In this document: positions 15,977-31,796 of the stretch, in pieces
Layout: each line of letters begins with the position of its first letter
How positions within the stretch are numbered: position 1 is the first letter of the stretch
IMG/VR virus record: IMGVR_UViG_3300021958_011541
Span: 1 to 64,000 of that record
Direction: 5' to 3' (one strand)
Length of the DNA stretch: 64,000 bases
Origin: a virus
Taxonomy: Duplodnaviria > Caudoviricetes
The notes under the pieces: generated by a model
What the model saw: the letters and a program-made list of their open reading frames with translations, nothing else
Database searches by the model: none
Told to the model about the DNA's origin: nothing
Made by a program: the position numbers and the translations under genes

Positions 15977-15993
15977 TTTTGGTTTAAAAAATA

Positions 15994-16225
15994 GGTGTGG
16001 GAAGGGATTACTGTATACCCTCAGCTTTCAGTGTGAACATCAGTTCTACGAGTTCCTACTTGCACTACGCTTGGACTGGGAATCCTGCCTCAAATCATTC
16101 GATTCATTGGCACGCCACCACAGAGAAACGTATACTTTATCTCGCTCACAACGAGATTATTCAGTCACCCACAGGAGATCTCCGTCGAGATTTCCAAAGT
16201 CATTAAAATGTTAAAGATCAATTAT
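15994..16225 (-). ncRNA. Candidate structured non-coding RNA (unassigned)
   Basis: GC-elevated intergenic segment after a sigma70 promoter. Hairpins AUCUC-GACG-GAGAU, AUCUCG-N7-CGAGAU, UGCC..GGCA, GAAC-UGAU-GUUC. Nested long-range pairs GUGGG/CCCAC, GUAUAC/GUAUAC, UUUC/GAAA, UGUG/CACA. Confidence 0.6.
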
Positions 16226-21926: not shown

Positions 21927-22463
21927 TTATCTGAATTGTTTTTGTAATAGTCTCCATCTATCTGAATCTATTGGTTTGTTTCCATTGTCTATAGCATACA
22001 ACATTTCAACAACTTCGTCAAGACTATTATAAATATATTTATGTGGCAACATGCCGAGCATCCATAGAGGAGTTTTAGCTTTGCCTCCCTCCATGCTAAT
22101 GAAAATTGGTTTTTTCATGCGTACAGCTGTTACAATTTCTTCTGCGCTACCCCATGAAGCTACATCTGGAACAAGATGGGCTATGATAAAGTCCGAACGA
22201 TCTACCAAATTTAAATCATAAGATCTTACGGTTTTCATTCTGTCAGTAACCCTATCGTATTGTTTAGTTTTCATCCATGTTTCCATTTCTATTCTTGAAG
22301 CTTCATCTTCTTCTACATCTTTCATGAATGGCTTTTTGTATGGATCAAAACAAGTAATCTCTAGCGGCTGAAGTTTATCTGTAACTTCTTCGCGCCAGTT
22401 TCGGCCACTAAGATATTGCATGTGGCCGACTAAATATGTTTTTGTTTTATATAAGAGATTCAT
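21927..22463 (-). CDS. Nucleoside 2-deoxyribosyltransferase-like protein
   Basis: TYLVGHM..NWRE, FDPYKKP, DLNLVDRSDFIIA, SWGSAEE. Confidence 0.7.
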   Translation of the reverse strand: MNLLYKTKTYLVGHMQYLSGRNWREEVTDKLQPLEITCFDPYKKPFMKDVEEDEASRIEMETWMKTKQYDRVTDRMKTVRSYDLNLVDRSDFIIAHLVPDVASWGSAEEIVTAVRMKKPIFISMEGGKAKTPLWMLGMLPHKYIYNSLDEVVEMLYAIDNGNKPIDSDRWRLLQKQFR

Positions 22464-23497: not shown

Positions 23498-23632
23498 ATG
23501 AATAATTTAATAGACTGTTTTACTTCTGCCTGTCACCACCCTGAGCACTTGATTATACCCTTGCTTGTTGTTGCGAGCATTGGGGTAATTTTTTATAGCT
23601 TTTGTAAAGCGAAAAAATCTAAATCGAGATAA
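23498..23632 (+). CDS. Small membrane peptide (44 aa), not in the ORF track
   Basis: MNNLIDCFTSACHHPEHLIIPLLVVASIGVIFYSFCKAKKSKSR; TTGAAC-16-TATAAT directly upstream. Confidence 0.5.
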   Translation: MNNLIDCFTSACHHPEHLIIPLLVVASIGVIFYSFCKAKKSKSR

Positions 23633-24902
23633 TATCTAAAACAGGCTCTCCTTTGTTTGAAACCTGAAAAGGTCGCCCAGAAGGAGAGTAATGAATATCA
23701 TTTAATGATAAACCCATTAAATGAGCAATTGTTGCATTTAAATCTTCAGGTTGAATAGGGTTTTCGACAACCTCCATAGCTCTATCATCGCTTTGCCCAT
23801 AAGTTGTTCCTCCCTTAATGCCTCCACCCACTAGCAAAGCAGAAAAAGCTTTCGGCCAATGATCTCTTCCGTTTCCTGGATTAATAATTGGCGTTCTGCC
23901 GAATTCAGAAGTTAAAACAACTAAAGTATCATAAAGCATGCCTCTAATTTCTAAATCTTGAAGCAAGGCACTAACAGCTTTATCTACATCTTGACAATTT
24001 GCCTCAACCCTTTCGAAATTATTACTATGCGTATCCCAACCGCCTTTCGTAACCTCTATATACCTAACATTGTGTTCTGCTAATCTTCGAGCGAGCAAGC
24101 AACCTTGCCCAAAGTTCGAAGAGCCATATAATTCATGCATGGATTCTGGTTCCGCAGTAATATCAAAAGCTTCAATGTCTTTACTTCTCATTAATTTTAC
24201 AGCATCTTTATATAAATCACTATAAGCTCTAACTTGTTTTTGGTTATATTTATTTACAAAATCTGAATTTAATGTTTGAGAGAGTAATATTCTGCTGTCA
24301 AATTGACTTTCGGTTAAATATTCATGCATTTTACTATTTGCGAGTCCAGCTTTTGGGTTTCCGATAGGTACTGCGTTATATTTTGCCTCAAGAAATCCAG
24401 CGTTTCCTCCTGCTCCGCCTCCAATTTTTACATGGGGTGGTATGCTTCTATTTAATGTTCCAGTTAATTTTACCGCCCAACTTCCAAAAGTAGGATGAGT
24501 AATCGTTCCTCGCTTCTGATAGCTCGTATGCATCAGATAGCTGGCTTGCATATGAGCTCCTTGGTTGCTAGTTAAAGACCTTATGATTGCTCCATTATGT
24601 AAGTGTTGGCCAATCTTTTGGAAATTCTGAGATATAAAAATTCCGTCTGCACTGGTTGGAACTGCTTCAACTGGGCCTTGAACTTCTGGGCCAGAATCTG
24701 GCTTTGGATCTAATGTGTCTATGTGAGACATTGCACCTGCCATATTTAAGTATATGACTTTGCGAGCCTTAGCAATCTTTTTTGTTGTTTCTATTCCATG
24801 CGCAAGATTATGGATGTAGTTGCCTGTCAGAGAAAATAAACCTACTCCGAGACAACTCTTAGCCATGCTTGCTATTACTTGTCTGCGAGATAATTCGTTC
24901 AT
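23619..24902 (-). CDS. DUF1501-like protein with Tat-type signal
   Basis: SRRQVI signal, VIYLNMAGAMSHIDTLDPKP, FGQGCLLARRL, GGWDTH, SEFGRTP..N..GRDHWP. Confidence 0.85.
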   Translation of the reverse strand: MNELSRRQVIASMAKSCLGVGLFSLTGNYIHNLAHGIETTKKIAKARKVIYLNMAGAMSHIDTLDPKPDSGPEVQGPVEAVPTSADGIFISQNFQKIGQHLHNGAIIRSLTSNQGAHMQASYLMHTSYQKRGTITHPTFGSWAVKLTGTLNRSIPPHVKIGGGAGGNAGFLEAKYNAVPIGNPKAGLANSKMHEYLTESQFDSRILLSQTLNSDFVNKYNQKQVRAYSDLYKDAVKLMRSKDIEAFDITAEPESMHELYGSSNFGQGCLLARRLAEHNVRYIEVTKGGWDTHSNNFERVEANCQDVDKAVSALLQDLEIRGMLYDTLVVLTSEFGRTPIINPGNGRDHWPKAFSALLVGGGIKGGTTYGQSDDRAMEVVENPIQPEDLNATIAHLMGLSLNDIHYSPSGRPFQVSNKGEPVLDIISI

Positions 24903-24929: not shown

Positions 24930-25363
24930 TGGTGGAGGTGGCGGGAGTTGAACCCGCGTCCTGATAGCCTTCAAGCTAACACGTCTACAAGTATAGTTAA
25001 TTTTTTTTATGGTTTTGATATTAACATCCAACCCTCTGTTTCAATTATTCACCTAGAACTAGGGCCCCCGAATACTCAGTGGTACAGTTTTTGATACAGA
25101 TAAACTTTTTCTGTTTTGCAGATCGATGACCCCTTTGCCTCTTTATCTGCGTCAAGAAGTAAGAGGCTAACAGCCTATGCTGCTAGGGCGAGCTTGCGGC
25201 TCTTGTAACCGAAGCGCTTTGCAGCGATACGATTTTTGAAGCCGAGAGCTCTAACATGTTTTTTAGCGCCATGTAAAGCTTTTGCACATTGATAGGGGAG
25301 CCGTAGTGCAATCTCCCTCTTGCAGTGTTAGAATTCAACTTCAGTCAAATCCAGAACACCCCC
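24930..25363 (-). ncRNA. ssrA: tmRNA
   Basis: 5' GGGGGUG-UUCUGGAUUUGAC; 3' T-arm GCGGG-UUCAACU-CCCGC then CACCUCC-A-CCA with G3:U70; pk1 (GGGAG/CUCCC, UUGCAC/GUGCAA); tag frame ends ...KLALAA-UAG at 25175. Confidence 0.95.
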
Positions 25364-25387: not shown

Positions 25388-25415
25388 AGTATATACACTA
25401 GAAAAGTTAAGTCAA
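25388..25415 (-). promoter_or_regulatory. Putative tmRNA promoter
   Basis: TTGACT-16 nt-TATACT with an embedded GTGTA. Confidence 0.5.
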
Positions 25416-27857
25416 ATTAATTTTTAACTTTCCTTTTGAAATACTAAGAGTTAAACTCGAGGAAGATATTGGACAAGAGGAAGACTTACTTTCTAAAATT
25501 ATTTTAGCAAGGTCATTTTCTAATTCTTTTTTAATTATATGTTTAACTGGCCTTGCCCCATCATTTAATTTAATTGCTTTATCTGAAATATATTTGTATA
25601 CAGCAGGTTTAACGACAATATTATTAATCGAAGAATTGATTTTAGAAAGACTTTTGTCTAGCTCTAATTTAGAAATTTTGAGTAAATCTTGTTCTGAAAA
25701 TGTATTAAATACAGCAAAAGTTTCTATACGATTAACTAATTCAGGTTTTAATTTTTTCTTTGCCGCTTCAAGAATTTTATCAGTTTGATCTTCCTTGGTA
25801 TTTGAACTCATGAAACCAACTGTAGAGCTTTTTTTAAGAAAGTCTGATCCAATATTTCCTGTTATTATAATAATACAGTTTCGAAAAGAAATCAATCTTC
25901 CCGAGCTATCAGTTAATTTTCCTTCTTCAAGAATTTGAAGCAATAAATTTGTTACATCTTCGTGAGCCTTTTCCACTTCGTCAAAAAGCAAAACCGAATA
26001 AGGTTTTTTTCTAACTCTTTCTGTCAAAGCTCCAGAAGATTCAAAGCCTACATATCCTGGTGAAGCTCCCACAAATTTTGCCGTTGAAGCTTGTTCTGAA
26101 TACTCTGACATATCAATATGTATTAAGCTTTTTTTATCTCCAAAAGCTAAATTTGCAACTTGTTTTGCTAAGTATGTTTTTCCTACACCACTAGTTCCCA
26201 GACATAAAAAACTACCTATTGGCTTTTCTTCATCTTTTAAACCTGCCTTATTTCTAATTAAGGTCTCGCAAATAGAGTGAATTGCTTCGCCTTGGCCAAT
26301 AACAACGTTTTTAAGTAAAGATTCTAGCTTTAAAAATTTGTCAGCTTCTGAAGTTGAAATGTCATCAATTGGAACTCCAGTTTTTTGAGATACAACTTTA
26401 TATAAATCTTTTTTACTAACTACAATTTCTTTAGAAGTGGAGTCTTCTGCCCAATCTTCAATAACTTCTTGGTATTTTTTCATTAACTTGTCTCTTTTTC
26501 GCATAATAATATTAGGCTCGCTTGATTTTAGCTCGACTTCGTATAGTTTATTAATTTCTGATTCAATCAGCAATGCTTCTTCGGGCCTTTTGAATGCATG
26601 AATTTTTGATTTTGCCCCTGCTTGATCAATTAAATCAATTGCTTTATCTGGCAATTGTCGATCTAATATAAATCTCGAAGCAAGCTTTATAGATTCTTCT
26701 AATAATTCATCTTCATATCTTACTCCATGAAAAATTTCATACTTTTCTTTTAAACCTTTAAGAATCTCAAGGCAATCTTTTTCATTTGGCTCTTCTATTA
26801 AAATAGGTTGAAACCTTCTATCTAATGCTGCGTCTTTTAAAATTGTTTTTCTATATTCTTCTTGGGTCGTTGCGCCTATGCACATGATATCTCCCCTGGC
26901 AAGCATAGGTTTAAGTATATTGGCTGCATCCATTGTACCCTCTGCACTACCAGCTCCAACTATCGAGTGTATTTCATCAATAAATACAATTGCATTTGGG
27001 TCTTTTTTAATTTCATCCATAGTATTCTTTAAACGTTCTTCAAACTGACCTCTATATTTCGTGCCTGCAATCATGCTTGCCATATCTAAAGAGTAAATTT
27101 TTTTCTTGTATAAAAATTCAGTTACAGTTCCTTCGATAATTTTTTGAGTTAAACCTTCTATCACTGCAGTTTTTCCTACACCAGCATCCCCTAAAAGAAT
27201 CGGATTATTCTTACTTCTCCTACAAAGAACTTCTGAAATATCTTTAATTTCTTTATCTCTGCCTATGACTTTATCATACTTTCCCAGTTCTGCTTTAGAA
27301 TTCATACAAAAGAAAAAATTAGATTTAAGAGATTCTTTATTGTCTTCAATTTCTTTTGGAAGATACTTGGCTTCCGCAGATAATCTTGTAGATTCTAAAG
27401 TATCTGCACTTGATATCAAAAACTGAGATCTTATTGTCAGAATACAGGATTGTAAACTCACTTCATTGCTTAGAAAAAATTCAGAAATTAAATTTTCTTC
27501 CTTTTTGAAGATTGATAAAAGTATGTGTTGTACTCCTATGTAATCATGCTCGTGCTTTTCTGCTTCCAATACTGCTCCGCCCAAAATAGATTTGTATTCT
27601 GCTGAAAAATAATTTTTTTTCGTTGGAGATGTTTGATTCTTTTTTAGTTTTTTAGAAATAAAAATTGTGAGATCTTTTCTATTCAAAGAAAAAGTATCAA
27701 ATAAAACCTCCAACGCTTGATTGTCAACTTTAGCTAATGCTAAACATAAGTGGTCTTCATTCACTACTCTTTTGTTATAAGAAAGCGCAAGCTTTCTTGA
27801 AGCTGCAATAATTTCTTGCGCTCTTGGGGTAAAATTAGGTTTAAGGTCCATATTCAT
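25407..27857 (-). CDS. clpC: ClpA/ClpC-family AAA+ chaperone
   Basis: N-terminal repeat domain, D1 GDAGVGKT/FIDEIH, D2 GTSGVGKT/FDEVEKAH, VGF ClpP-docking loop. Confidence 0.93.
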   Translation of the reverse strand: MNMDLKPNFTPRAQEIIAASRKLALSYNKRVVNEDHLCLALAKVDNQALEVLFDTFSLNRKDLTIFISKKLKKNQTSPTKKNYFSAEYKSILGGAVLEAEKHEHDYIGVQHILLSIFKKEENLISEFFLSNEVSLQSCILTIRSQFLISSADTLESTRLSAEAKYLPKEIEDNKESLKSNFFFCMNSKAELGKYDKVIGRDKEIKDISEVLCRRSKNNPILLGDAGVGKTAVIEGLTQKIIEGTVTEFLYKKKIYSLDMASMIAGTKYRGQFEERLKNTMDEIKKDPNAIVFIDEIHSIVGAGSAEGTMDAANILKPMLARGDIMCIGATTQEEYRKTILKDAALDRRFQPILIEEPNEKDCLEILKGLKEKYEIFHGVRYEDELLEESIKLASRFILDRQLPDKAIDLIDQAGAKSKIHAFKRPEEALLIESEINKLYEVELKSSEPNIIMRKRDKLMKKYQEVIEDWAEDSTSKEIVVSKKDLYKVVSQKTGVPIDDISTSEADKFLKLESLLKNVVIGQGEAIHSICETLIRNKAGLKDEEKPIGSFLCLGTSGVGKTYLAKQVANLAFGDKKSLIHIDMSEYSEQASTAKFVGASPGYVGFESSGALTERVRKKPYSVLLFDEVEKAHEDVTNLLLQILEEGKLTDSSGRLISFRNCIIIITGNIGSDFLKKSSTVGFMSSNTKEDQTDKILEAAKKKLKPELVNRIETFAVFNTFSEQDLLKISKLELDKSLSKINSSINNIVVKPAVYKYISDKAIKLNDGARPVKHIIKKELENDLAKIILESKSSSCPISSSSLTLSISKGKLKINLT

Positions 27858-27868
27858 AATAGGTTACA

Positions 27869-30439
27869 CTAATCTACATCACTAAGTTTCATATAAATCT
27901 TGTGATCTAAGATATTCATGCTGTTTGCGAATAAAATATCATCTCCCTTTCTTCCAGTTACTGTAATTATATTGCCTTTCTCTGGAATAATTCCGCCAGA
28001 ATCGGTATATTTTGATAAAGTTAATCTATTTCCAAAGTCTCCCATCATAATATCCATACTTCCCACTTCATCAGTCATTGTTAGTTTAACATAAGGATTT
28101 CCATTTCTGGACTTTCTTTTTATAACATCCGATACAGTGCCTATAAAAACGTCAGACTCGTCTTTAGATAAAGATCTAAAATCAAAACTGTCTTTTATAA
28201 GATGTCCCGAGGACTTAAAAATTGAGTTAAGTTTACAGGTATAAGAATATCCTAATAATTTATTCTCGAAATACCAATTTGCAAATAATTCATGAGATTT
28301 ATTTTTGTCATAGATTTTTTTATAAGAATCAAATTTCTTTTTAAATGTTGCAAAACGCTTTTCTGTCATTAGTTTTTTGCCGTCATCTCCTACCAATATT
28401 CCTTTTTTTGCATCTGAAATTGCTTTTAATAAACTAAAGTTATACTTTTCTCCTAACTGATAAAAGTTTCTTTTTTCCCTCTCAGTTAATAGATTAAAAG
28501 ACTGGGCTTCCAAAACTAAAAGCGATCGATTGGTTTTATAGCTAGACAGCGCTCCTGCCTGAATTAAGGAAGATAAGGCTCCAATGTTTAGGCCCGCTTG
28601 CTTTGCAGCAATAAAGATATCGTATTTATTTGGAGTGTCTGAATCTCTAAAATCTCTCAGAGCTTCAAAGGATTTTTCGCTAACACCCTTAATGCTATTT
28701 AAGCCAAATCTAATGTTTGATTCTTCTATAGAAAAGTCTATGTTTGACTTAGCTAAATCAGGAGGAAGTAATTGAAAATTAAACCGAGAAAGTTCTTGGC
28801 AAATCTTATTGATTTCTTCCTGAGGAGACGGCTCGAATTTAGTCATCTTAAGCAAAGATAAGAAAAACTGTTGAGGATATTTAAATTTTAAGTATACTGT
28901 CCAAGCAGAAAGTATTGCATAACTGATACTGTGAGACTTATTAAAAGAATAGTTTGCGCTATCTTCTGCAACCCTCCACAGAACATCTCCTGCATCTTCT
29001 GAAAGATTGTTTTCTTCAATTTTAGATTTGATTTTTTCTTGCCAAGCAGGCATTTGATCTACCTTTTTCTTTCCAACGATTCTTCTTAATTGCTCGGCTT
29101 CATCAAGAGTGAAGCCTATTTTAACCGCCATTTGCATTAACTGTTCTTGGTAAAGAGGAATGCCTGCTGTAGGCTCTAAAATTTCATCAAATAGTTCGTG
29201 AACGCTTTGAGAGTTTCCTGTTTCTCTATAGGCCGAGTAGTCGTTTAAAAAATCTAGGGCTCCAGGCCTTGCAATAGCAATTACAGCACTAAGCTCATCT
29301 AGATTTCTAGGTTTAATTTTTTTGCATACTCTAAAATCTGTATCCGCTTCAATTTGAAATATTCCATGAGGAGAAATCAAGTCTTGCAAGCTATCATATA
29401 TAAGCTTGTCTGAAGTCTTGATGTCTTGAGGTTTGATATTTAAAGCATTACAAGTATTGTATATTACACTCAAAGTTCTTAAGCCTAAAATGTCAAACTT
29501 AACAGTAAGTTCTGCTACCCAATTCATATCATAACCACTAATAATATCTCCTTCGGAGTTGGTCTGTAAGGGGCAAATATCCTCTAATTTTTGATATGAA
29601 ATTGCTATGCCACTTGGGTGAACGCCTGTATTTTTATTAAGGCCCTCTAACTTTTTTGCAATTTTTATAATGTGCTTGTTATCTTTAGACCAAGCGTTAA
29701 ACTTTTCGCTTTCTTTTGCAGCTTCTTCTATAGGTAAGACTTTACCAAACCTTTTAGGAATAAAGTCGCTAACTTCATTTACTTCTTGTTCTGTAAGATT
29801 ACCTACTAATTTACCACATTCTTTAATGCAAAGTTTGGAGCTTAGGGTATTAAGCGTTAAGATTTTGCATGTTCTTGATGGATACTTATTTTCAATATAT
29901 TTAATTACTTTTTGTCTATGTTCGTAAGCAATATCATTATCTACGTCTGCAAGTAGACTGCCATCTAAATAAGTTATACCATTCTCTTCTATTTTCTTTG
30001 CCCTACTCTTAGAAACAAATCGCTCAAAGAATAAATCGTTCTCTATAGGATCTACTTGCGTTACCCCAATAAGATAAAGAACTAAACTACCTGCAGCAGA
30101 GCCTCTTCCTGGCCCTGTAGGTATGTTATTGTTATGGCAATAATTTAATATATCCCAGTTAAGCAATATATAATCTATGAAACCTAGTTCATTAAGAATT
30201 GATAGCTCTTCCTTTACCCTTTCTTTGTAAGATTTAATATTCTTTTTATTAATAGGTTTTTCTTTTAAGCCTTGAAGGCATAAAGATGTCAGGAATTTTG
30301 TATTCGAAGAATCTGCACTTAAGCCTAACCCTTCATACATTTCTTTCTCGATAATAATTTCTGGCAATCTTACTCCAGGAGGAGCAAAATTTTTGTAAGT
30401 TTCAAACCCTTCTTCAAAACTCATATTTCTACCTCCCAT
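27869..30439 (-). CDS. dnaE: DNA polymerase III alpha (palm-thumb-fingers-OB, no PHP); start possibly 30424
   Basis: GPGRGSAAGSLV.Y, LFFERF, ADVDND, HPSG, KFDILGL, RPG, YQEQ.M, YSFNKSH. Confidence 0.95.
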   Translation of the reverse strand: MGGRNMSFEEGFETYKNFAPPGVRLPEIIIEKEMYEGLGLSADSSNTKFLTSLCLQGLKEKPINKKNIKSYKERVKEELSILNELGFIDYILLNWDILNYCHNNNIPTGPGRGSAAGSLVLYLIGVTQVDPIENDLFFERFVSKSRAKKIEENGITYLDGSLLADVDNDIAYEHRQKVIKYIENKYPSRTCKILTLNTLSSKLCIKECGKLVGNLTEQEVNEVSDFIPKRFGKVLPIEEAAKESEKFNAWSKDNKHIIKIAKKLEGLNKNTGVHPSGIAISYQKLEDICPLQTNSEGDIISGYDMNWVAELTVKFDILGLRTLSVIYNTCNALNIKPQDIKTSDKLIYDSLQDLISPHGIFQIEADTDFRVCKKIKPRNLDELSAVIAIARPGALDFLNDYSAYRETGNSQSVHELFDEILEPTAGIPLYQEQLMQMAVKIGFTLDEAEQLRRIVGKKKVDQMPAWQEKIKSKIEENNLSEDAGDVLWRVAEDSANYSFNKSHSISYAILSAWTVYLKFKYPQQFFLSLLKMTKFEPSPQEEINKICQELSRFNFQLLPPDLAKSNIDFSIEESNIRFGLNSIKGVSEKSFEALRDFRDSDTPNKYDIFIAAKQAGLNIGALSSLIQAGALSSYKTNRSLLVLEAQSFNLLTEREKRNFYQLGEKYNFSLLKAISDAKKGILVGDDGKKLMTEKRFATFKKKFDSYKKIYDKNKSHELFANWYFENKLLGYSYTCKLNSIFKSSGHLIKDSFDFRSLSKDESDVFIGTVSDVIKRKSRNGNPYVKLTMTDEVGSMDIMMGDFGNRLTLSKYTDSGGIIPEKGNIITVTGRKGDDILFANSMNILDHKIYMKLSDVD

Positions 30440-31062
30440 AATTGTTTTTTGAGCACTTCATAATTAATATTAATATCGTATAATGCATCATGAAGTTTAT
30501 TTGGATCAAAATCTATTTTATATTTCTTTGCACACATTTGCAAGCTTGTTCTTAAACCTTTTTCAATATGATTGTTTAGGCTATACTGCCAGCAAATAGA
30601 GCTTTTATTCTGGGGTTTTGTAAGCTTTTTAGCTATACCTTTTGCTAGGCAATTTGTGTCAATAATTCTATTGATATAACTATAATCAGAAGACATATTT
30701 AAAAGCTTTCTATGTATATTATGAATATATACATCAAAACCTAAAACATTATGACCTGCTGGAATATATTCTTCGTTATAAAGATAAGACTCAAAATGAG
30801 ATAAAACTTCTAAAGGGCAGACAGCGAGTTTATTATACTTTGCCATTGAGAAACCAGTAATTTTTGCCGCGTCTTTAGAAATTTCTAAGTCGTCCCATTT
30901 TAAATAATAATCATGGGTTTCGAGGACTTTGTTGTTAGCAGCTATAATAAAAGATAACTGCCAAGGTTTGTTCTTTGTGCTGCAAAGATTGAGATTGCAA
31001 GTTTCATAATCAAAGATTAGGAATTTTTGATTTTTATTAAATCTTAATAAATTGTTATTCAT
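30421..31062 (-). CDS. DEDDh 3'-5' exonuclease (DnaQ-like)
   Basis: FDYET, GHNVLGFD, LHDALYD. Confidence 0.9.
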   Translation of the reverse strand: MNNNLLRFNKNQKFLIFDYETCNLNLCSTKNKPWQLSFIIAANNKVLETHDYYLKWDDLEISKDAAKITGFSMAKYNKLAVCPLEVLSHFESYLYNEEYIPAGHNVLGFDVYIHNIHRKLLNMSSDYSYINRIIDTNCLAKGIAKKLTKPQNKSSICWQYSLNNHIEKGLRTSLQMCAKKYKIDFDPNKLHDALYDININYEVLKKQLWEVEI

Positions 31063-31067
31063 TGCAA

Positions 31068-31796
31068 TTAGATTTGTTGTAAGCTTTCAATACAAAATTC
31101 TTGGCTTCCGCAGTGATCTAGATTGGGACATTCCAAAGAAGTACTTTTACCTTTCCATCCTGATCGATTGCATATTAATTTATAAGATTGAAAAGCTGAA
31201 AAGTCTTCTCTATTTTTATAATAAATAGTTTTAACCATTTCAGTTTCAAGGTTATTCTTTTTTGCAAACTTTAATACTTCATCTTTTACAATTGAATCAA
31301 AAGGTAATTGATTTTCTTCTATAAATAAGGTTGGCTTAGTAAAATTAAAGCTGGGCATGCATTTTGAAAACAATAAAGTATTATTAAATATAAAAGAATC
31401 ATAAAAGGGGATTACAAGCTTAAGGTTTTCTTCGCTCCATAAGTTTTTAAAATCTTTAAGTAAAATACTGTTTCCTCCTTCACTAAAGGTTTTTGTGTAA
31501 ATTTTATTTAATAGCTTACAACCTTCTCCATTTTTTGCAAAGACTATTAATTTGTGACAGTCTCCCTTAGACGAGGTTGAATCCGACTCGCAAACTGAAA
31601 TTCTTAAACCAAACACAAAATCAATATCGTAACATTTACTCATTTTTGCTGTTTCTAGAAAACCAGTTAAGCTATCTTCTACGATAAAAATTTTTTTTAG
31701 TTTAAGGTCTCTAGCTATATCAAATATTCCTTCTCCTCCTCCGAGCCTGAGAATACTTTTACCTATACTGAAGTGAGATTTAAATAAAGGAATCAT
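31068..31796 (-). CDS. Stand-alone PHP domain of DNA polymerase III alpha
   Basis: KSHFSIGKS, FVFGLRI, LIVFAKNGEGCKLL correspond to the DnaE N-terminus. Confidence 0.85.
   Translation of the reverse strand: MIPLFKSHFSIGKSILRLGGGEGIFDIARDLKLKKIFIVEDSLTGFLETAKMSKCYDIDFVFGLRISVCESDSTSSKGDCHKLIVFAKNGEGCKLLNKIYTKTFSEGGNSILLKDFKNLWSEENLKLVIPFYDSFIFNNTLLFSKCMPSFNFTKPTLFIEENQLPFDSIVKDEVLKFAKKNNLETEMVKTIYYKNREDFSAFQSYKLICNRSGWKGKSTSLECPNLDHCGSQEFCIESLQQI

Follow-up and report, generated by a model that had tools for sequence, protein, structure and literature searches.

A phage-encoded tmRNA with a 31-codon basic tag frame, from a family of phage tmRNAs with long charged tags

The DNA analysed here (the window) is a stretch of 64,000 nt, covering positions 1 to 64,000 of IMG/VR virus record IMGVR_UViG_3300021958_011541. 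The viral contig is 80 kb long, with a CheckV completeness estimate of 59%, and the record has a G+C content of about 32% and closely packed minus-strand genes. The one tmRNA gene that ARAGORN found in the window has a ClpC-like gene and a DnaE gene as its upstream neighbours and a DUF1501 gene downstream. The DUF1501 family gene (23619-24902, minus strand, 371 bits) starts 28 nt past the CCA end of the tmRNA and has homologues in two related contigs, L021 (61% identity) and L037 (47%). The DnaE protein is present as a catalytic core of 856 aa, without a PHP domain hit, within 27869-31796 (minus strand); it is preceded in this interval by a separate RNase_T-type exonuclease gene and a 242-aa gene without a Pfam hit, an order that is identical in L010. 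The most conserved protein near the tmRNA is encoded by a nucleoside 2-deoxyribosyltransferase-like gene (21927-22463, minus strand), which is 69-94% identical in nine related contigs, and a manA RNA motif (RF01745) is found at 15992-16192 on the minus strand (76.7 bits, threshold 55.2).

The tmRNA is a complete, one-piece molecule of 434 nt at 24930-25363 on the minus strand. A 434-nt tmRNA had been read at this place in the original prediction, which had proposed ARAGORN and Rfam RF00023 as checks; both located a complete tmRNA at these coordinates, the Rfam match scoring 102.6 bits (gathering score 47, E 6e-39) over the full model (1-374). The acceptor stem is formed by 25357-25363 and the 3' strand within 24930-24961, where the 5' GGGGGUG pairs with the 3' CACCUCC, followed by ACCA, and the G3:U70 pair is present in the sequence. 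The 3' half of the tRNA-like domain, comprising the T arm, the 3' strand of the acceptor stem and the CCA, occupies 24930-24961 in the Rfam alignment, with high posterior probability for the T arm. Pseudoknot 1 was placed at 25282-25318 (minus strand) by the Rfam structure line, and its loop motifs are common to verrucomicrobial tmRNAs. From its terminal GTGCAA (25287-25282), 11 nt lead to the resume codon GGC (Gly, 25270-25268), called by ARAGORN and aligned with the GCA of the Rfam consensus; the frame-setting upstream sequence UACAU, with U-5 and A-4, lies immediately before it at 25271-25275. The tag reading frame of 31 codons ends at a TAG (25175-25177) and so extends over 25175-25270, with the stop codon held in the loop of helix 5 (25167-25186, from Rfam and folding). 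The spacing, the resume codon and the length of the frame had all been noted in the original prediction and can be read directly in the sequence, and the tag reported by ARAGORN (25178-25270, minus strand) is identical, letter by letter, to the 31-residue peptide given there. Alignments also showed an extra 33-nt stem-loop in the pseudoknot 3/4 region (25050-25082, minus strand). A putative sigma-70-like promoter, TTGACT-16-TATACT (25388-25415, minus strand), overlaps the stop codon of the ClpC-like gene; it is a consensus match of 10 out of 12 positions.

Sequence of this tmRNA was present in six metatranscriptome runs from aquatic and salt-marsh samples. Two of the runs, salt-marsh metatranscriptomes, yielded assembled RNA contigs of 423 and 424 nt, at depths of 85 and 54, which span 24932-25354/5, although ends and strand are not provable from assembled contigs. 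Four runs were aligned to the window, and cover was zero on the ClpC flank and almost nil on the DUF1501 flank. Carry-over of DNA is disfavoured because its cover would not end at gene borders in all four runs. These data indicated that the tmRNA is expressed as a discrete RNA of about 424 nt in environmental libraries.

The tag contains six lysines and four arginines and no aspartate or glutamate, for a net charge of +10, and its C-terminus is LALAA. The frame is also open 5' of the GGC. These features were described in the original prediction (10 K/R, no D/E, a frame open upstream) and all were read in the sequence. The prediction had further called the tag exceptionally long and purely basic. 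Known tags are 8-35 aa in length (PMC8012679), so that 31 aa is at the upper end of the known lengths and not beyond it; what is unusual is the charge of +10 without a single acidic residue.

Relatives were collected by scanning viral contigs for exact matches to the 3' 32 nt, and then viral, metagenome and species-genome collections for tag patterns. The 3' 32 nt (24930-24961) had an exact match in 28 viral contigs, and this first scan returned contigs with related tmRNAs carrying the same 31-codon tag. The 5' part of the tag was found in 76 loci, which gave 31 distinct 31-codon frames and 21 distinct 20-codon frames, the metagenome share being 53 marine contigs. A backbone pattern outside the tag was found in 91 viral stretches, and the carriers were all phage-like contigs. 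Three contigs (L016, L019 and L020) carry a different type of phage tmRNA, with a 13-residue tag, a double stop codon and two adjoining tRNA-Asn genes, which has only the 3' 32 nt in common with the tmRNA of the window.

Substitutions among the 31 distinct 31-codon relatives followed the codon phase of the tag frame. The pN/pS ratio was 0.26 in the tag frame, versus 1.09 and 1.67 in the other two frames, and variable sites at codon positions 1, 2 and 3 numbered 11, 9 and 21. Codons 1 and 3-6 were set by the search pattern and codons 7-31 are free of this ascertainment; codons 7-26 taken alone gave a pN/pS of 0.23, versus 1.3 and 1.9 off-frame. The 20-codon class gave a similar value (0.265). 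Constraint from RNA structure on the same nucleotides could distort substitution counts, but it cannot explain the codon-phase signal. Leucine was preserved across changes between CTC and TTA, and insertions in the frame were always multiples of three and stop-free among the 31 and 21 distinct sequences. The comparisons thus indicate that the 31-codon frame from GGC 25270 is under purifying selection at the level of the peptide.

The start of the tag was supported in three further ways. The consensus resume codon falls on GGC 25270 in the Rfam alignment, in which a 60-nt insertion lies inside the tag frame. The U-5/A-4 pair precedes the first codon in 112 of the 113 family members; the equivalent E. 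coli residues, U85 and A86, are determinants of the resume codon (PMC2481249). In the relative L012, the resume codon GGC is replaced by GCC (Ala). Codon-phase purifying selection, the U-5/A-4 context and this Gly-to-Ala replacement together argue that translation uses the long basic frame, as the original prediction had it in placing the resume point at GGC. From these comparisons the 31-residue tag appears to be real, with a start that we infer.

Within the tag frame lies a predicted hairpin of 20 pairs with a GCAA tip (25190-25251, minus strand). Across the 31 distinct sequences 94.5% of cells were paired, versus 25-47% in controls in which the 3' strand was slid, and three pairs were changed on both sides (G-C to A-U, U-A to C-G, and C-G to U-A). 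The 31-codon form differs from the 20-codon form by 11 extra codons (33 nt, 25205-25237, minus strand), which make up the tip of the hairpin and lie between direct repeats of GGYTTCAAGA. The 20-codon class has a shorter hairpin in the equivalent position, with changes on both sides at five pairs when this named structure was counted; RNAalifold run on the 20-codon class did not return it. A long hairpin was also found when the 40-codon acidic frames of two relatives (L028 and L146) were folded, with z of about -3.5 to -3.8. The predicted fold of the basic classes leaves codons 1-6 single-stranded, which suggests that a hairpin placed after six free codons lets the frame lengthen without disturbing its loading into the mRNA channel. 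The structural rule offered by the family would be that a tag frame can be extended if the added codons fold into a hairpin past the first six. From the comparison of the two classes, the 31-aa form appears to have grown from the 20-aa basic form through the 11-codon insertion.

The census of the family contained 113 resolved loci with 60 distinct tags, with 23 loci unresolved and one (L125) mis-assigned by the distance rule. The 60 distinct tags were 19-40 aa long (median 21) with net charges of -11 to +12 (median +5), which puts the tag of the window near the basic extreme. Fifty-four of the 60 begin with Gly and 49 terminate in ALAA. Sister tmRNAs on the same scaffold have acidic tags of 34 or 40 residues, net -9 to -11, which end in LEMVA, LEMAA or LPMAA (L013:4306-4747, L012:4476-4886, L025:3843-4280, L030:593-1035, L032:6300-6681, L028:3670-4046 and L146:1777-2211). 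Outside the tag, the tmRNA of the window is 79-85% identical to the acidic members and 73-88% identical to the other members with 31-codon basic tags, while the tag cassettes are unrelated. The extra 33-nt stem-loop (25050-25082) is shared by the window, L021 and several acidic-tag members, is lacking in most basic-tag members, and is thus scattered across tag types. This mosaic of scaffold, cassettes and scattered stem-loop points to replacement or exchange of cassettes.

ARAGORN recovered only the last 16-28 residues of the tags of the acidic sisters, starting from an internal codon (Ala); this internal start is contradicted by the UACAU-GGC context that the sisters have in common. Seven other members (L105, L107, L110, L112, L113, L115 and L116) were mis-framed by ARAGORN, with a 15-residue tag begun inside pseudoknot 1, and five (L018, L021, L039, L041 and L129) had no ARAGORN call and Rfam scores of 102-137 bits. 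Virome surveys that rely on ARAGORN probably under-report such tags, and the family is abundant in marine, estuarine and salt-marsh metagenomes.

In cellular genomes the tag was not found among 185,579 species representatives, and family tmRNAs were present there only on contigs of metagenome-assembled genomes (MAGs). The backbone pattern had 42 matches in the species genomes, nearly all by chance; at least four (L039, L125, L129 and L146) were family tmRNAs on MAG contigs. Two Methylophilaceae chromosomes that matched a 24-nt tag pattern were also discarded as chance, the match lying in a protein gene and the single tmRNA of each having an ordinary 10-aa tag. The MAG contigs with a family tmRNA were of 13 to 211 kb, with sizes of 47, 49, 100 and 211 kb among them: PBIO01000024.1 (L039), JAYPYG010000001.1 (L125), JAYQMT010000004.1 (L129), JAQBUS010000001.1 (L146) and CBFHLR010000063.1 (L147/L172). 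Each of the four MAGs that were searched also has a separate tmRNA with an ordinary tag, and the labels of the MAGs (Halobacteriovorax, Neomarinimicrobiota, Cellvibrionales, Coraliomargarita and 'Proteobacteria') were rejected as evidence of the host for this reason. The family contigs in these assemblies look like phage contigs that were mis-binned into bacterial MAGs.

To investigate the host lineage, one family tmRNA was compared by BLAST with whole genomes sampled from several groups, and the genomes with a match at E ≤ 1e-10 were counted. Matches were found in about 16 of 401 genomes of Verrucomicrobiota, one native match in 300 Gammaproteobacteria, and none in 301 Bacteroidota, 201 Cyanobacteriota or 251 Planctomycetota. 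Host phyla could be told apart by the BLAST tallies and by a multiple alignment, but not by global pairwise identity. Verrucomicrobial tmRNAs were the closest cellular ones found, with 52-56% overall identity, versus 44-47% for one gammaproteobacterial and one bacteroidete tmRNA. An earlier guess at a PVC host, made from the DUF1501 gene, fits with the Verrucomicrobiota being the best of the six groups sampled, a tentative assignment at only 52-56% identity. Among the 29 best-matching verrucomicrobial tmRNAs, 17 have the tag GEEQFALAA or GEEQFAMAA, and 28 of the 29 tags are 9-10 aa long. The original prediction had allowed that long basic tags might be normal in the host lineage; with short acidic tags in the closest cellular lineage found, the long basic tag does not appear to be a host habit.

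The gene upstream of the tmRNA encodes a ClpC-like double AAA+ unfoldase of 816 aa (25407-27857, minus strand; Pfam Clp_N, AAA, AAA_lid_9, AAA_2 and ClpB_D2-small) and ends 43 nt before the tmRNA on the same strand. It has Walker A motifs at residues 223 (GDAGVGKT) and 554 (GTSGVGKT) and a ClpP-docking-type loop, VGF, at residue 680, and 19 of 20 aligned ClpC sequences from phages have the xGF of this loop. On these features the protein is predicted to be a full ClpC-type Hsp100 unfoldase. Homologues, 40-44% identical, were found in one of four records with 31-codon basic tags (all fragments), three of five with acidic tags and five of five with 20-codon basic tags, two of the last being complete genomes (194 and 203 kb). 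Neither smpB (PF01668) nor clpP was found in the record of the window or in five relatives, two of which are complete. The 4-kb flanks of nine ClpC relatives contained no tmRNA, and three of those contigs carry a family tmRNA elsewhere.

The best-supported account of these observations is that the tmRNA depends on host factors and rescues ribosomes during infection, with a tag on which selection has acted through peptide and RNA fold alike. Alanyl-tRNA synthetase of the host would charge the phage tmRNA, which has the G3:U70 pair, and host SmpB is presumed to deliver it to stalled ribosomes, since no smpB was found in the phage. The ribosome would then resume at GGC and add alanine and the 31 residues ending in LALAA. 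Given that 49 of the 60 distinct tags still end in ALAA, proteolytic marking appears to be retained, and the tagged product is most likely still handed to host proteases of the ClpXP/ClpAP type. The long, charged middle of the tag would be a phage-specific add-on. As a single backbone carries cassettes of net -11 to +12, the middle may act as a specificity module, altering the adaptor or unfoldase by which tagged proteins are handled, or the speed of their handling; this is the weakest step and is put forward tentatively. We infer that the hypervariable charged middle provides a second, selectable function, the simplest being the choice of adaptor or unfoldase or the kinetics of degradation. 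As a whole, the reading of the locus as a working phage-encoded tmRNA with a 31-residue tag, in which the ALAA degron is kept and the charged middle is a phage-specific add-on, is considered probable.

As one possibility, the original prediction had proposed that the tag may redirect rescued proteins to a different protease or adaptor, and had named the adjacent ClpC. In a specific form of this proposal, the basic stretch would be a recognition element for phage ClpC docked on host ClpP, with the phage supplying both the tag and its reader. The short distance on the same strand, the adjacency found again in L021 and L018 (there and in the window only, ClpC is at most about 100 nt upstream) and the 1.4 kb that separate the genes in L022 are in keeping with this, as are the two Walker A motifs, the conserved docking-type loop and the failure to find a phage clpP in the records searched. 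ClpC and tmRNA also occur together in both complete genomes and in most of the large fragments. However, ClpC accompanies 31-codon basic, 20-codon basic and acidic tags alike, and the two genes are kilobases to tens of kilobases apart in the other members. Charge complementarity between the N-domain of ClpC and the tag was looked for and not seen: the net charge of the domain was +3 in the window, +4 in L021 and -12 in another phage with a 31-codon basic tag, and -2, +4 and -6 in phages with acidic tags. Nothing ties ClpC to the basic tag, and the proposal in this form is improbable; across the clade at large, ClpC may be functionally linked to tagged proteins.

Somewhat less probable again is that the main job of the tag is something other than degradation, such as neutralising, aggregating or relocating truncated proteins, binding nucleic acid (in the basic form), or slowing or saturating the host Clp proteases. 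Net charges of -11 to +12 over 19-40 aa go far past the needs of a C-terminal degron, and unrelated cassettes on backbones that are 79-88% identical across tag types suggest selection on the cassette itself. Nearly all of the tags nevertheless retain a terminal ALAA or a close variant, as expected of a Clp degron, and no known feature of a binding or targeting peptide was found in the sequence. That the 60-nt segment is in essence an RNA element, with a short true tag resumed downstream or a peptide that is irrelevant, would agree with the ordinary 11-residue tag that the frame reads without it and with its 20-pair, covarying hairpin, but is very improbable in view of the codon-phase selection in codons 7-26, the in-frame, stop-free insertions and the lack of U-5/A-4 ahead of any in-frame codon near the stop, where the original prediction had allowed that the true resume codon might lie.

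In a bolder reading, the mRNA-like domain of this tmRNA family may be regarded as an exchangeable specificity cassette, whose replacement or rebuilding outpaces the divergence of the scaffold and through which the phage sets the fate of every protein from stalled ribosomes in the infected cell. This cassette reading is speculative, and its various forms would include a choice between host and phage unfoldases or adaptors, and an escape from, or jamming of, host proteolysis. If it is true, trans-translation would be a contested interface between phage and host, and not housekeeping that is merely topped up by the phage. The tags of tmRNAs are usually seen as short and fairly uniform degrons, and this family keeps the scaffold and the ALAA while the middle is long and strongly charged, with either sign, and under selection at the level of the peptide. 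If the charged part sets the choice of protease or adaptor, these tags would be natural variants with which to study how sequence upstream of a degron steers Clp machines, and phages would be tuning protein quality control beyond the supply of ribosomes.

Phage tmRNAs have been reported from the mycobacteriophage Bxz1 group and Bacillus phage G (PMC4131195), from the OM43 phage Melnitz, which has a two-piece tmRNA, in a study that found tmRNA genes in 2.3% of phage genomes (PMC9004378), and from huge phages (PMC7162821). The tmRNA of the window resembles them in being phage-borne and dependent on host factors, and differs in that no long, strongly charged tags or cassette variation were described in those reports. 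Long charged phage tags were likewise not described in anything that searches of the literature brought up, and a blastn search with the tmRNA had no hit among GenBank phages.

Among cellular systems, the tmRNA is built like the one-piece SsrA of the E. coli type (RF00023), with G3:U70 and CCA, pseudoknot 1 placed 11 nt before the resume codon, U-5/A-4, a stop codon in helix 5 and an ALAA tag end. Unlike that type, its tag is about three times longer, with a charge of +10 and no acidic residue, there is a conserved extra hairpin in the frame, and no smpB was found in the phage. Verrucomicrobial tmRNAs with the GEEQFALAA tag, such as that of a Coraliomargarita MAG (L168), share the 5' end, the loop motifs of pseudoknot 1, the 3' end, the GGC resume codon and a frame that starts GGC-GAA, whereas their tag is acidic and 9 aa long, there is no hairpin in the frame, and the region of pseudoknots 2-4 has diverged.

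A further comparison is with the long tags of Mycoplasma tmRNAs, whose recognition by Clp is reported, in work attributed to Gur and Sauer (2008), to have given way to recognition by Lon. These tags belong to cellular tmRNAs in genomes that have lost ClpXP, and are neither basic nor terminated by ALAA, in which they are unlike the tag of the window; they are nonetheless a precedent for a lengthened and rewritten tag that redirects tagged proteins to another protease.
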